Shown: positions 18,001-30,000 of the stretch, in pieces
Position numbering within the stretch: the first letter of the stretch is position 1
Layout of the letters: each line of letters begins with the position of its first letter
Assembly: GCA_964525495.1 (NCBI GenBank)
Contig: CAZGHS010000006.1
Coordinates: 10,891 to 74,890, forward strand
Direction of reading: 5' to 3'
Source: an uncultured Gammaproteobacteria bacterium
GTDB taxonomy: Bacteria > Patescibacteriota > Microgenomatia > JALYQM01
DNA: 64,000 nt
Made by a program: the position numbers

Positions 18001-21000
18001 ATGTCGTAAACAAATAGACTAAGAGAATCGCCAATGATAGGATAACTGCTATTTTTTTCATATTTATTTTGATCTTTGTATTGCGAACTCTTTTCTTCTT
18101 CTCCTTATTTGAATGCCCTTTGCGATTAATGGAAGTATTGGAATTAACATAGCTAACAATGCTGTGCGCTCTGGAACGACGATACCTACATCAAGTCTGG
18201 TATCAGCATCAACTGTTCCTGATGCATTGTGTGCCCCGTTGTATCGTAAGTCGAATGTTCCACCTGTGCGCGTGAACTTCATGAATAGACGCTTATGTGT
18301 AAGCGATTCTTCACCGTATTGTGGCAGGTTTGAGAATACTATACTCTTCTCTCCGTCTGTAGAGTCTACTCCACCATCAAATGTGCCATTGGTACTCTCA
18401 AAGGCTGTAGTTTCTCCGTCAGCTTCCGTAGCACCAACTTGGACGTTTAAGGTATCTCCAGATGCTAAGTTATTAAGTATAAAATATGCTGTCCAACTGG
18501 TTGAGGTCATACTTCGGTTCATGGTGTTGTATGACTGACCGTAGATATTTATAGCTGGCGCTCCCTCTCTTGTATCATTCCAGGCTAATTGTAGTGCGAT
18601 ATCGTCAGCAGCATTTGTGTATGTACGTTTGCTAATCACCGGCTTAGTTTGAACTGAAGTATTAAGAGCACCTCGCGTGTTGTCTACTCTGACATCGCGG
18701 ACGTTGTAGGAACCATTCTCCCCTAGCCCATTTGGCCAAACTGGGTTGCCGTCACTATTCACTTTTTGCATATAAATGTTTGACTCACGAGTTGTATCCG
18801 AAGGTGACGTCAGTCGATCGTCAGACCAGGTTACATAGCTGACAGCGTTAGCGCTGTCAGATGCGATTCGTGGATCAGTCTGATTATATGATCGTGATGA
18901 GTCATCTGATGAGATTAATTTTTCACTTAACTCTGGAGTAAAGAGTTCGGTAGTTGTGTATCCTAGCGAAGCATCAGAGTCACCCCCAATAATGAGCATC
19001 TTGCCTGTTTTAAGTAGTACTGAGTTTGCATATGTACGTGAACCAGTTGCTAAATTCGGTCCGGCAGTCCATGTACCAGTCGTAGGGTCGTAGAGCTCCG
19101 AAGTTGAGAGTACACCTACAACATCATCCTGTCCTCCAGTTAACATAACTTTTCCACTTGGAAGAAGCGTGATATTGGCATAATCACGTCCGCCATAAGT
19201 AAGACTTCCGGTTGCTGTCCAGGTCTGACTACTTGGATCATAAATCTCCGAAGTTGAAAGCACACTTCCTGGACCGGCGCTTCCCCCAGTTATGAGAACT
19301 TTATTATTATTAAGTTTAATTGCGTGTGGTCGCTGTCTTAATCCCGTTGTAAGTGACCCGGTCGTTTGCGTCCAGGTTTGAGTTGTCGGATTGTATAGCT
19401 CTGAGGTTGAAAGTCGTACAGAACCATCGTATCCTCCCATGATTAGTACTTGCTCGTTGGCTAATGTCACTAACCCAGGACCTAACCGCGAACCCAATCG
19501 TAAACTACCTGTGGTTTGTGTCCAGGTCTGGGTTGTCGGATTGTATAGCTCTGAGGTTGAAAGAACTGTAGCTACGCCAGAACGCCCGCTCGCAGTTAAA
19601 ACTGTGCCAGTGCTTAAAATTGCAGTCAGCGCTTCACTTCGCCCACCTAAGCGCAGACTGCCGGTTGTTTGTGTCCAGGTTTGGGTTGCTGGATTGTATA
19701 GTTCTGAGGTTGAATGATAAGCTGCTGATCCATCAATACCGCCATAGAAAAGAACCTGACCATTTTCAAGCGTTACAGTGCCAGCATTTGCTCTTTCACC
19801 GGTTCGGAGATTGTCCGTCAATGACCATGTGCCCGCCTGAGGGTCGTAGATCTCTGCGGACGAATAGTAGATTCCTCCGTCAGAATCCAATCCCGCAGTT
19901 ATAAGAACTTTGCCTGATGGTAATGTTGCTGCACTGCCAAAGGTTCTCAGATTATTCAGTCCGCCACCTGATGCGAATGAGTTGGGAGTGCCTGTTGGTA
20001 ACATTTTTGTTACTGATCCAGATGATGGGTTATTAATTTTTTGTTCTGCTATTTTCCATGAGTTTCCACCATTTCCTGGAGATAGACCCTCTGCTCTCCA
20101 TGCCTGCCAGACTATCTGGAAATGTCCACTACTGTCTTTTACTAAATCAGGCTTAAGCGAGTGCGTGCTGTCATTATTTGATACTTTTTGATCTATTGAG
20201 AAGATCTCTGCTGATGAGTATGTTGTAGAATCATCCCAACCGCCAAAGACTGCTGTTTGTCCATTGTTTAAGGTAACCATTGTGTGATTTTTTCTTGCTG
20301 TCCCTGTTCCAGCAAATACAGTCCAAGTTCCTGTGGTCGGATCATACAACTCTGCAGTTGTGAGTTCGTCAGTTCCATTGGTTGTGCCACCATGAACTAC
20401 TATCTGACCAGATGGAAGTAATACTGCAGTGTGATCTGACCTTAACCCTCCAATTAAACTACCCGTGGTTGTCCAACTATTTACATCTGGAGTGTATATT
20501 TCAGCGGTTGAGAGTCTATTTGTTCCATCGCTTCCACCAACTGCTAGTACTCTTCCATCATTGAGCGGTGTTAGCGTAAAATCTTGTCTCTTTGTTGCCA
20601 AAACTGAAGCAGCTGTCCATGCACTCGTAGCAGGATCATAAAACTCAGCCGATGAAACTGGTCCAGTTCCATTAGTACCTCCTGCTATCAAAACCTGTCC
20701 ACCTTTCATCAACGTTGCCTCATGGTTTCTTCTTAGCCCTGTTCTGAAATTGCCGCTTGCAGCAAATGTTGAAGTATTAGTTGTATACAATTCTGACGAA
20801 GAGAGCATAGTTGTAGTATTTCGTCCACCTGCAATGATTACTCTGCCGTCACGTAAAGCAGTTGCAGTGTGCTCGGCTCGAGATGTTGTCATGCCTCCTG
20901 TGGTGCTTGCAAATGATCCTGACTCACCGCTGGCTGTAAAAAGCTGTGCAGTAGTAGTTGATGTACTGCTTGAAGTACCACCTCCGGTTATCAAAGTCTG

Positions 21001-27000: not shown

Positions 27001-30000
27001 AGCCTTATATGGATTTTGTACTACTAATAGAGCTGCGTTTTTAAGTTGAAGTTTTATGTTTGGTGAGAGGTATGGTGAGACGAGTGAAGCAAGTTTCTTA
27101 TATTGAAGATCTAGATTGTTATATATAGATCTAGTAAACGCATAAAAATCTGGCGGTGATGAGTTACCTGCGTGGAATATTTGCTGATCCTCAATGACAG
27201 GCTGTATAACTTGTTGTGGTCGAATCTCTGGAACAATTTGTTGAGTTGGGGTAGATCTGTAGCTAAATATATATCGCTTATTGGCGGTACTTAAATTATT
27301 CTTCTGCAACTGATTCTGAATCCAATGGCGACTTACTAGTTGTTCCCCGTTATTTGCAGAGCACAGGTAACTATATATTTTGTCTACGCTCCAGGTAGGA
27401 TTAGCAACTATTAAGTCTTTGACCATAGATATAATTCGATCATCTATAGTAGTTTTTCTTCCCTGCTTTCGGCTATTTGTGTGATTTTCCTGCTCACTCA
27501 CTTTCTTCCATTTATAGAATGTTTTTCTAGAAATACTAAATCGAGCGCACAGCTCAGATACAGTTTTATGTTCCTTCAAAGCATTGAGGAATTCTTGGCG
27601 AAAATTGGCAGTATCTTTTTTGCGGGCAGGCATAAGTTACTTCAATAATTAATCTTTAAATAGTGTTACCTTTTTAAGGTATTATGTCAACATATAAATG
27701 TTTTCTCCCATTTATGGATATAAATTTAGCCTTAAACGACAAAAAACACCTAAAAGAAGCCTCTACTACTCTCGTTTTAAGGATTTTTAATGGATACCTA
27801 TGACCGACCTATTAGTTAGTATTGCTGTACTGTTACCTATCTTTTCATGACAACTTTATGATCTTAATTTAATGTATTTAATCTTCTTTTTTAAACTACT
27901 GTTTTATGTATCTTGAAATTAACCTTATGCTTTATTTTTAATGTATATAACCCTATATTATCCTTATAACTTTTATACTTTCTTTTTTGTATTATTATTA
28001 CTATTCTATGCTGTTTAATAATGTATCTTTTCATAGTCAACTAATGTTTTGTTTTCATTCACATAAATTATTGAGTTAAGATTTAATTTTTATAGGCTAT
28101 GTTGTTTCCGTGTTGCGTATTGACCCACTCAGTAATATTTATTAGTATTAGCTTGTATAAAATTTAAGTGTGCATACGTATCTATGAATAACGATAGTGA
28201 GACAAATTTGGACAGCGAATACCTTGGCATAACCGAAGCGGCTGAATACTTACGCGTTTCAGCCTCAACACTGCGTAGATGGGAAAAAAAAGGGTTTTTG
28301 ATTCCTGAGCGTACTCCTACGGGAATTCGAAGGTATACTAAGAAACAACTCGATGATGTTATCCAATCACCACCTCAACATGACGTAGCTACAGCTGTAT
28401 CAAGTGCTCCTGCCACTGATTATCAAATGCAATCAGACTATTCATTAAATACTCCTCCTGAAGAGAGTAATCCATGGCAGACAGAGCCTTCTGTAGCTGA
28501 GATTGATTCTTATATTGAGGAAACCGATGTTGTAACTCCAACAATTACAGAGGATGACGAGGTTAAGCAGCTTCATAGCTTTTTTCAGCAAGCAGGATAC
28601 AGCTTCGAGCCATCACAAGATACCTCACAGTCTTTTTATTCAAAGAATGACGCTGTAGCGCCACAGGTTGATGAACCTGTAGCTCATGAAGTAGAACAGC
28701 AAGAATTACCAAAGCTTGACTATATTGAGGAACGAATTGAAGTTGAGACACCATCAGAACGTATCGAAGTGTTTCATGATGAATATATGCAACCGGAGGA
28801 GGATGCGCATACGTATAACGAGCCGTTTAAACAACCTCGTCAAGATCGCGTTGAAACAACAGATGATCTGCTTGCCCTTACCGATGACCAAGAGGAAGAA
28901 GAATATGAAGAGCCAGTAAGATCAGAACAACCTACAAAGAAAAGACCATCGAAGAAGAAGCTGGTTATTTTTACTAGCGTATTTGTAGCTGTTTTGTTTA
29001 TCGTATTTATCTCTTGGTCAGTCTACAGCTTTTATTCTTCTCCAGGCCAATTGTATAGTCCTGTTATTGAATGATCTACTTTGATGCCATCTCTTTAAGC
29101 TTTTCTAAGGCTTTGCTTTGCCCTATTACGTAAGCCAGCGTGTTATGTTGCTCCTGAGAAATGCCGGACTTAATTCCGTTTTGTAACGCTAAGAGTTTTA
29201 TTTCTTCATCGCTGACCTTAATATCATTTTTAATGCGAATCTCTTGCAAGATTAAGGCAATTTTAGTATTCTCCTTAGCTCGCTCGACCCATTCAGCTCT
29301 TACCTGTTCTTTGGTCTTGCTCTCGGTCTGAAGATAGGTATCAAAAGTTATTCCAAGCTTATCAAGTTGTCCAATAAAACGCTGTTCAATCCTATTAACC
29401 TCTTCATCGATTAGTAGATCAGGCATATCTATGTCTACTAACTCTTGTGCTTTCTTTATCAGCTCCTCTTCGTATTGTCGTTCTACACGAGTGCCTTTGT
29501 CATACTCTATTTCTGACTTTACCAGTGATTTTAAGTCATCGAGATTTTGAGCTCCAGCTGCTTTAGCAAATTCGTCGTCCATTTCGACTTCGACAGGAGC
29601 ATCGGTTGATTGTGATTCGTTATTTATATTGCCTGCTTTTTCTTTGGCATCTTGTGCTCTAATTTTCTTGTATTGCTGGAATATTTTTTCTATAGACTCA
29701 CTGACTTCTTTGTCAGTTACGTCTTCTTTTGCTGGCTTGCTTGCCTTTAAGTCTGACTCAATTTTGTCTACTGTTACTTTTGGATAAACTATCGCGCTTG
29801 CTGTTACAACCAATTGTTGGCCTGGCTTCCATTCACCTTCAAGTTTATAGTCAGGGTAATTTAAAAGCATGATGCGCTGTTTTGTATCAGTTTGTGACTC
29901 TTTGAGAGCTTTTTCAAACTCTTCAGGAATCAATGTGTTTAATGCATCTTCGTATATTTTGTCTTTTCCGATGCTACCCTCTACCATGGCCTCTGGAGCT

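Follow-up and report, generated by a model that had tools for sequence, protein, structure and literature searches.

The window analysed here, a stretch of 64,000 nucleotides (64 kb) of contig CAZGHS010000006.1 from an uncultured bacterium, carries on its minus strand one giant gene (18064..27633) whose 3,189 codons run from an ATG start to a stop codon at 18064-18066 with zero internal stops. An earlier examination of the same DNA without database searches (the sequence-only reading) had described an uninterrupted 9.57-kb open reading frame (ORF) of 3,189 amino acids (aa) that fuses a processive family 2 glycosyltransferase (GT2) to an extracellular array of LamG and Kelch domains, and the continuity of this ORF is confirmed. 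The product is a polytopic membrane protein, whose parts are given below in order from the N terminus.

27325..27633, minus strand: cytoplasmic transposase-type DNA-binding module, residues ~1-103 (HTH_28/HTH_Tnp_1 plus winged HTH_32/HTH_29; Pfam, NCBIfam).
26815..27006, minus strand: two N-terminal transmembrane (TM) helices, residues ~210-233 and 243-273, which bring the chain back into the cytoplasm (Kyte-Doolittle peaks).
25744..26814, minus strand: cytoplasmic GT-A (family 2) domain and interface helix, residues ~274-630 (Pfam, motifs).
25171..25749, minus strand: membrane module after the GT domain, with TM 629-648, TM 657-679, helix 689-710, the motif W718-F-R-T-P-K723 and TM 799-821 (hydropathy, charge flanks).
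24748..25170, minus strand: N-terminal piece of the basal ectodomain and linker, residues 822-962, opening with the conserved 'ANPDTYYMR' (tail hidden Markov model, HMM).
24274..24747, minus strand: Laminin_G_3/concanavalin-A-like domain, residues 963-1120 (Pfam, 4.3e-34).
18928..24183, minus strand: four Kelch blocks with interleaved hub repeats (blade HMM, unit HMM).
18184..18516, minus strand: end piece of the basal ectodomain, rich in beta structure, residues ~3040-3150 (within a tail-HMM hit to ~2985-3184).
18064..18183, minus strand: family-specific C-terminal anchor, with V-V-P3154-E3155, TM 3156-3176 (containing P-I-L-P) and RRRRKE.

Given that the source sequence is metagenome-derived, and that one locus of the wider family (L028) has its GT2 and its tail as separate ORFs, we considered whether a mis-assembly, a missed frameshift or read-through had joined a normal GT2 gene to a separate gene for a Kelch surface protein. 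Such an artefact is extremely improbable. The same continuous layout is present in at least seven further independent assemblies, at 45-68% identity, so that the fusion is conserved in related genomes. These orthologs, with their parts in the same order as in the window protein, are P0122 (3,134 aa), P0123 (3,455 aa), P0242 (3,056 aa), P0124 (partial), L001/P0243 (2,957 aa, on a 1.57-Mb contig), L020 (from Candidatus Chisholmbacteria, its sequence interrupted by a run of N), P0244 and P0245; their identity to the window protein is 65-68% in the core and ~45% in the ectodomain. A protein identical to that of the window (P0121) is encoded on a 78.7-kb NCBI contig. The last helix of the synthase itself and the conserved anchor that we call the PE tail come after the Kelch array, a tandem-repeat finder detected no DNA tandem repeats in the giant ORF that could promote mis-assembly, and the GC content at third codon positions (GC3) is uniform. 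As far as sequence comparison reaches, an artefact is essentially excluded.

The overall GC content of the giant gene is raised to 0.43-0.47, with the excess in codon position 2 (0.527). Gly, Ser, Thr and Ala make up 42% of the ectodomain residues, and it is this richness, acting through codon position 2, that raises the GC content rather than a foreign origin. A recent horizontal acquisition, suggested by the value of 0.43-0.47, was therefore rejected, the GC3 of the ectodomain (0.326) being equal to that of the neighbouring genes. The contigs that carry the orthologs also hold the closest relatives of the window ArgRS (52-60% identity), which argues that the giant gene has been inherited vertically within one clade. 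The more distant named matches of this ArgRS are Patescibacteria, as are most named relatives of the giant protein itself, in agreement with the earlier placement of the host in this lineage.

The catalytic core has the features of a membrane synthase. Three GT2 models of Pfam (Glyco_tranf_2_3, Glycos_transf_2 and Glyco_trans_2_3) match residues 330-701, the first and third of them above the Pfam cut-offs. The motif set on which the sequence-only reading had based a processive-type enzyme is complete, comprising DDSTD (D364), FDAD (D417xD419), TED (T546-E547-D548) and QRQRW (Q584-R-Q-R-W588). In an alignment to 47 relatives, D364, D417/D419, T546-E547-D548 and Q584/R587/W588 all lie on invariant columns, and the window protein keeps 101 of the 104 family-invariant residues. 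In BcsA and in hyaluronan synthases (HAS), the QxxRW helix is followed by two TM helices, the interface helix IF3, a gating loop and two further TM helices, and the gating loop bears the motif FxVTxK in BcsA and WGTR/K in HAS and Chs. A gating-loop-type motif, WFRTPK (718-723), is invariant in the 47 aligned family members and sits in the window protein between helix 689-710 and TM 799-821.

Hydropathy places helices at residues 210-233, 243-273, 629-648, 657-679, 689-710, 799-821 and 3156-3176, which bears out the TM helices proposed to follow the GT2 domain. Their flanking charges orient the chain: four K/R follow the second helix (243-273), helix 799-821 has five K/R ahead of it and one behind, and helix 3156-3176 has one K/R (and four D/E) ahead and seven behind. 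By these flanks the GT domain and the gating loop are cytoplasmic and residues 822-3155 lie outside, a prediction for which the positive-inside flanks are decisive at three points, and which agrees with an extracellular, not cytoplasmic, LamG/Kelch region. With residues 822-3155 outside, helix 689-710 must be an interface helix (IF3), as in BcsA and HAS. The helices then follow the 2+2+2 plan of HAS, so that the ectodomain fills the loop that joins the final two helices of the synthase itself. The order after the QxxRW helix is the same in BcsA, where the last two helices are among the channel-forming set TM3-8 (PMC8892547).

Both ends of the protein carry elements that the sequence-only reading had overlooked. 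At the N terminus, residues 3-103 form a transposase-like helix-turn-helix (HTH) module, and the NCBIfam matches of this region are to N-terminal parts of IS481, IS630 and IS3 transposases. The HTH modules are confidently modelled in a family member, P0004 (1,073 aa, 40% identical to the window protein), whose fold was predicted from a 47-sequence alignment with a mean predicted local distance difference test score (pLDDT) of 77.7; counterparts of the N-terminal TM pair lie at 256-283 and 289-322 of this model. At the C terminus stands the TM anchor at 3156-3176 followed by RRRRKE. Its sequence in the window protein is VVPE-RTALLAMLIPILPLIAKGIQI-RRRRKE, and the PE-x9-PxxP spacing is the same as in short members of the family.

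The relation of this anchor to the rest of the ectodomain became apparent from the tail HMM, which spans the gating loop to the C terminus of 34 short members with ectodomains of ~190-250 aa. Positions 1-~120 of the model match residues 720-~850 of the window protein (3e-18), taking in the gating loop, the TM helix and 'ANPDTYYMR' (in the model, 'AtnPetfYlRs'), and positions ~180-339 match residues ~3040-3184 (7e-10), taking in the beta domain and the PE anchor. Because the model splits into two separated matches, the LamG, hub and Kelch array is an insertion in the basal ectodomain; profile comparison thus shows ~2,200 residues (LamG, hub units and four Kelch blocks) nested in the family's basal ~200-aa beta domain. 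In the P0004 model this basal ectodomain is all-beta (strands 831-1034, pLDDT 75-92). Anchored at both ends and holding a nested insertion, the ectodomain would form a cap or loop over the channel exit, not a free stalk, and the massive surface stalk envisaged previously is accordingly not supported.

In form, the PE tail (PE, TM helix, RRRRK) resembles a protein sorting signal. Sorting signals consist of a motif, a TM helix and a basic tail found on many unrelated cargo proteins, and they act with a cognate sorting enzyme. Among the fetched loci, the PE tail occurs on ORFs of the GT2 family and on three others that are cut by a locus end, cut by a gap or too short to assign; no NCBIfam sorting-signal model matches it, and there is no sortase-type gene within the 64-kb window. 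A general sorting signal of the LPXTG, PEP-CTERM or PGF-CTERM type was rejected on account of the near-exclusive occurrence on family ORFs and the lack of an NCBIfam model. We read the PE tail as part of the enzyme.

Between the two halves of the basal domain lie the LamG and Kelch parts, which the sequence-only reading had described as a LamG-like domain and about six propellers. Both domain types are upheld by Pfam, LamG at 4e-34 and Kelch_1 at 1.5e-104 (with further matches to Kelch_4, Kelch_6, Kelch_2 and Kelch_3), and the number of propellers is revised. An HMM built from the protein's own Kelch blades detects 28 units in four contiguous blocks of seven, K1 (residues 1151-1509), K2 (1596-1943), K3 (2136-2483) and K4 (2545-2902), which makes four propellers, not six; judging from the count, each block would be one 7-bladed propeller. 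Kelch propellers in general consist of four-stranded blades of ~50 aa in tandem, six or seven of which make a closed ring. The 4 x 7 layout is also present in the complete orthologs scanned, with one block of L001 showing six detected units, and in L020 a sequence gap cuts the array after the third Kelch block. The sequence matches of the Kelch region in the PDB are to the propellers of KLHL20, KLHL12 and KEAP1, the best at 2e-48. The LamG domain is peculiar to the window protein within its orthogroup: PF13385 is listed by Pfam for neither P0122 nor P0123, a Pfam scan of L001 does not return it, and P0242 has no LamG segment at the equivalent position.

A third kind of repeat had been missed. 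Seven conserved non-Kelch units of ~45 aa, here termed hub repeats, lie between the Kelch blocks (DNA ~18517-24252) and have no annotation. They are u1 (residues 1128-1148 and 1510-1528, split by K1), u2 (1550-1595), u3 (1975-~2075), u4 (2093-2137), u5 (2491-2538), u6 (2919-2968) and u7 (2988-3039), with a consensus of approximately P-x-V-A-x-D-x-x-G-N-x-V-V-V-W-x-D-x-R ... I-Y-x-Q-K ... G-x-x-x-W. Among 341 proteins compared, the units are confined to the Kelch orthogroup. In an alignment covering K3 and K4, u5-u7 are conserved at 58-66%, versus 40-50% for the two Kelch blocks. The concatenated hub/linker segments and residues 822-962 gave no Pfam or PDB sequence match; DUF5440 (E 0.038), the sole hit of these searches, was taken as noise. 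An AlphaFold prediction with four orthologs, for the stretch 1939-3138 that holds two of the Kelch blocks along with u3-u7 and the C-terminal domain, had a mean pLDDT of 45, too low for use. The units may together form a hub domain.

Radical copper oxidases such as galactose oxidase and GlxA have a Tyr-Cys cofactor, two His and one Tyr as copper ligands, and an E-set domain with a His-bearing hairpin. If the Kelch propellers were enzymes of this type, the protein would be a fused CslA-GlxA that modifies the glycan as it emerges. The best NCBIfam match of the whole protein is indeed the GlxA model NF052501 (1e-62, 212 bits), Pfam adds a match to Glyoxal_oxid_N, each block has seven blades, the number known from galactose oxidase, and CslA-GlxA is a documented pair of a GT2 and a Kelch oxidase (PMC11022532). 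However, the 212 bits compare with a cut-off of 800 and are spread over nine repeat stretches. K2, K3 and K4 contain zero Cys, so a Tyr-Cys cofactor is impossible in these blocks, and the two Cys of K1 lie eight residues apart in one loop. PF09118, the GO-like E-set domain from which a copper ligand comes, is unmatched, and the nearest PDB sequences are non-enzymatic Kelch propellers. We therefore regard oxidase activity as most unlikely and, since the blocks appear unable to perform GlxA chemistry, read them as binding or scaffolding modules.

The giant protein belongs to a large family that is essentially restricted to Patescibacteria, as judged from its GT2 core. The family plan comprises an HTH, two TM helices, the GT2 domain, two TM helices, the gating loop, a TM helix, a variable ectodomain and the 'PE' TM anchor; all defining features are found in the window protein, namely the HTH, a GT2 core of at least 40% identity, WFRTPK, a TM helix with 'A-x-P-x-x-[FY]Y', and [VI]PE followed by a TM helix and K/R. 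An exhaustive HMMER search returned 377 family clusters at E<=1e-30, with scores falling from 877 to 589 bits after the four clusters of the Kelch orthogroup. Named members are mostly Gottesman-, Davies-, Woese-, Curtiss-, Chisholm- and Roizmanbacteria, with some metagenome-assembled genomes labelled otherwise. Most members begin with the HTH (P0053 and P0054 have a MerR HTH instead), and nearly all complete members end in [VI]-P-E-x followed by a hydrophobic helix, in many cases with PFIP, and then by clustered K/R residues.

This chassis is conserved at 40-68% identity, and the ectodomain, which ranges from 200 to ~2,900 residues across the family, is exchanged among paralogs and among lineages. 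The 150 nearest cluster representatives have a median length of 1,402 aa; 30 of them are at least 2,000 aa long (up to 3,654), and Kelch or hub units occur in four, all members of the orthogroup. Other giants of the family have LamG, a glycine-rich domain or nothing recognisable in the ectodomain. Several paralogs often occur within one genome: GT2-Kelch genes of 3,252 and 3,455 aa adjoin on the P0123 contig, L017 has tandem paralogs of 2,825 and 1,235 aa (247-12679), and in L001 a second HTH-GT2-Kelch gene (11333-14438) directly follows the ortholog. The window has a single copy of the GT2-Kelch gene. A constant chassis with a swapped ectodomain suggests that the outer part is a specificity or contact module, setting specificity for the fate of the polymer or for a partner surface.

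A word-indexed protein search with residues 1-960 had given no Kelch relative, not even P0121, as if the Kelch fusion were unique; this was rejected, because a genome scan recovers the giant orthologs (65-68% identical) and the exhaustive HMMER search ranks them first, and word-indexed searches seem to under-sample long proteins. In the Daviesbacteria locus L028 (9062-13647), one ORF holds the GT2 part (600 aa from stop to stop) and another the PE-anchor tail (768 aa), which may represent a frameshift or pseudogene or a naturally split version. Database labels of family sequences read 'glycosyltransferase' or are unnamed, and we found no description in the literature of the family, of GT2-Kelch giants in the Candidate Phyla Radiation (CPR) or of the HTH-GT2 combination.

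Comparison with known systems places the core in the BcsA/HAS class of membrane GT2 enzymes. A Foldseek search with the P0004 model recovered BcsA of E. coli and R. sphaeroides (E 8e-19 to 1e-12) as well as Chlorella-virus HAS and Xenopus HAS1 (target-normalised TM-score ~0.6), and together with the complete motif set and the 101/104 invariant residues this supports the assignment made in the sequence-only reading. By sequence the window protein resembles BcsA weakly, with a phmmer match of 2e-7 that spans ~70 residues. The scores against NCBIfam equivalogs are all far under their cut-offs, at 57.5 bits versus 699 for CelA (TIGR03030), 39.8 versus 992 for NF008558 and 85 versus 422 for the PNAG synthase PgaC/IcaA (TIGR03937), and the product can therefore not be named.

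Class I HAS (Chlorella virus, Xenopus HAS1) has the same plan of two TM helices, GT-A domain, interface helices, two TM helices, IF3, a W-x-T-x-K/R gating loop and two TM helices, and it is a single-subunit synthase-translocase, as we propose for the window protein; identity is ~15%. In HAS, unlike the window protein, a short loop joins the last two helices, as it does in BcsA, and an N-terminal DNA-binding domain is lacking. BcsA likewise is a membrane GT2 that has the D, DxD, TED and QxxRW motifs together with a gating loop and forms a channel of its own, but it carries a PilZ domain; the window protein has no PilZ match in Pfam or NCBIfam and has instead an N-terminal HTH. With BcsA-BcsB, including the single-chain BcsAB/AcsAB, it shares the plan of an extracytoplasmic partner that a C-terminal TM anchor keeps above the exit. 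BcsB, which is periplasmic and tail-anchored, has carbohydrate-binding domains, is sometimes in one chain with BcsA, and requires its TM tail for activity (PMC8892547). The window ectodomain is not a BcsB homologue, as its Pfam and NCBIfam matches include no BcsB model. It is three to four times larger, and it is an insertion between the synthase's last two helices whereas BcsB is an appended subunit.

The second parallel is found in Streptomyces, where CslA forms an active cellulose synthase complex with the Kelch-type GlxA, the extracellular part of which is needed for full activity; here too a cellulose-synthase-like GT2 is combined with a membrane-anchored extracytoplasmic 7-bladed Kelch-type propeller (PMC11022532). 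GlxA is a separate, N-terminally anchored radical copper oxidase, whereas the window protein has four propellers in cis. The sequence-only reading knew of no precedent for such a fusion. In view of the occasional fusion of BcsB to BcsA (PMC8892547), the CslA-GlxA complex (PMC11022532) and the 30 of 150 relatives with lengths of 2,000-3,654 aa, this view is no longer tenable.

The genes around the giant gene are relevant to its possible function, and those that bear on it are as follows.

825-1544: sugar-1-phosphate nucleotidyltransferase (NDP-sugar pyrophosphorylase).
1510-2214: small AglJ/ArnC/PgfS-like GT2 of the polyprenyl-phosphate-sugar type.
2910-5273 and 5889-8174: further YfhO-like GT-C genes.
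8171-10156: second TMEM260-like GT-C gene.
12621-15080, minus strand: YfhO-like GT-C (Pfam, NCBIfam).
15077-15898, minus strand: Glucodextran_B/FxLYD-domain protein (Pfam, NCBIfam).
15902-18061, minus strand: TMEM260-like GT-C with a TPR tail (Pfam, NCBIfam).
28184..29074, plus strand: MerR-family regulator, divergent from the giant gene (Pfam MerR).

The region 825-18061 (both strands) is a dense envelope-glycosylation neighbourhood. The giant gene heads an operon-like run on the minus strand, with the genes of 12621..18061 downstream and intergenic gaps or overlaps of at most 3 nt. The order TMEM260-like, Glucodextran_B, YfhO is repeated after the orthologs on the P0123 contig, and in L040 a TMEM260-like gene follows the family gene. 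On the other side, a 550-bp AT-rich spacer (27634-28183) separates the giant gene from the MerR gene, a homolog of which is upstream and divergent in L001, L010, L012, L037, L006 and L035. Promoter and terminator scans gave matches no more frequent than in shuffled controls.

Pgf and CsbB-GtcA-YfhO systems combine a small polyprenyl-phosphate-sugar-type GT2 with YfhO-like GT-C enzymes, as the window does, and the Pgf system glycosylates surface adhesins. Similarity to S. mutans PgfS and PgfM1/M2 is weak (22 bits versus a cut-off of 1400, and 62 versus 500), no flippase was identified, and the Pgf-type neighbours are tied to the giant protein by gene order alone.

Elsewhere in the window, two adjoining minus-strand ORFs of ~200 aa (30191-30802 and 30828-31469) each give two partial matches to nucleoside-diphosphate-kinase profiles, and may be divergent paralogs with insertions or a split gene. 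A further minus-strand region (52551-56518) encodes a 787-aa DUF11-containing ORF and a 535-aa ORF without a Pfam match, both of which may be surface proteins; wholly within the DUF11 ORF, but on the other strand, lies an ORF of 317 aa (53470-54423) that is probably spurious. ComEC- and ComEA-like competence genes stand beside a stand-alone response regulator at 36498-39063 (minus strand). The remaining genes are housekeeping (LeuRS, ArgRS, Obg, TGT, Rho, RadA-like, trigger factor).

By analogy with BcsA-BcsB and CslA-GlxA, the giant protein is probably a processive synthase-translocase that has its partner domain built in, tethered at both ends and capping the exit; what we infer here is that it is processive and uses a channel, as well as what glycan it makes and what the ectodomain does. 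In such a mechanism polymerisation of a nucleotide-sugar would take place in the cytoplasm, and the chain would be driven through a channel formed by the protein itself, to emerge under an ectodomain tethered on both sides of the exit. The ectodomain would do in cis what BcsB or GlxA does in trans, receiving, guiding or retaining the nascent glycan, and could also present binding surfaces outward. It is rich in Ser and Thr (23% S+T). Going by gene order alone, the downstream GT-C enzymes (TMEM260-like with TPR, and YfhO-like) most likely use lipid-linked donors to add O-glycans to this ectodomain or to modify the polymer.

Several observations weigh against a processive synthase of this kind. 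D,D,D,QxxRW is also found in non-processive lipid glycosyltransferases. The highest target-normalised TM-score in the Foldseek search (0.75) belongs to PcManGT, a mannosyltransferase of archaeal N-glycan synthesis whose cellulose-synthase-like fold is minimal. The structural match comes from P0004, 40% identical to the window protein, and not from the window protein; in that model the helices flanking the ectodomain (the preceding TM helix and the C-terminal helix) have a pLDDT of 45-68, so that the packing of the last helix into the channel wall cannot be derived from it. Helix 689-710 is hydrophobic enough to cross the membrane, and a crossing would force a revision of the topology. No carbohydrate-binding residues were identified in LamG or in any Kelch block, the ligands of Kelch propellers are often proteins and not sugars, and the PDB sequences nearest to these blocks are KLHL/KEAP1.

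These points could be accommodated if the GT2 made a glycolipid or a short lipid-linked glycan, like PcManGT or glucosylceramide-type enzymes, that feeds the GT-C neighbours, with the ectodomain as an independent adhesin or host-contact module merely anchored by the enzyme. The top score of PcManGT and the resemblance of the Kelch sequences to the protein-binding KLHL/KEAP1 propellers fit this arrangement, as does the free swapping of the ectodomain between paralogs that keep a constant core, and the three YfhO-like and two TMEM260-like GT-C genes of the window need lipid-linked donors. The window, however, already has a small polyprenyl-phosphate-sugar-type GT2 (1510-2214) beside the NDP-sugar pyrophosphorylase. 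The full set of six helices that channel-forming synthases have is kept in the giant protein, along with the QxxRW helix and the motif of the gating loop, its best Foldseek E-values are to BcsA and HAS, and the ectodomain is tied to the final helix pair in every family member, which is hard to explain if the parts are independent. We hold a glycolipid synthase of this kind to be the main alternative to the processive synthase-translocase, though an improbable one.

A more speculative extension, which we think unlikely, is that the protein works from outside to inside. A swappable extracellular receptor would sit on the mouth of a glycan-export channel, contact with a ligand or host would gate extrusion, and the membrane-tethered HTH would couple this state to transcription in a ToxR-like manner. 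The receptor would consist of the four Kelch propellers on the seven-unit hub, the hub itself possibly being a propeller with further propellers set between its blades. The HTH in question is transposase-derived, gives way to MerR in some members, and has a conserved divergent MerR gene as its neighbour. If true, the idea would define a new class of contact-sensing glycan synthase for the attachment of Patescibacteria to their partners.

As a kind of system, a synthase with an extracytoplasmic partner is known already. What appears to be new is that the partner is nested within the last helix hairpin, that it is so large and so interchangeable, and that a DNA-binding module at the N terminus and the hub repeats are present. 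It is thought that Patescibacteria (CPR), which are abundant and for the most part uncultured, live attached to other cells, and to our knowledge the way in which they build and decorate their surfaces is largely unexplained. The locus exposes hundreds of clusters, at 50% identity, in which a cellulose/hyaluronan-synthase-type engine is wired to an interchangeable outer domain and a DNA-binding domain, an architecture that the plain database label 'glycosyltransferase' hides whether the outer domain handles the enzyme's own glycan or binds host surfaces. In the former case the family would amount to a natural collection of synthases joined to their partners in a single chain, on the principle of BcsA-BcsB and CslA-GlxA, and would help to explain how partners activate synthases. 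In the latter, its outer domains would be candidate determinants of attachment and specificity in these episymbionts.

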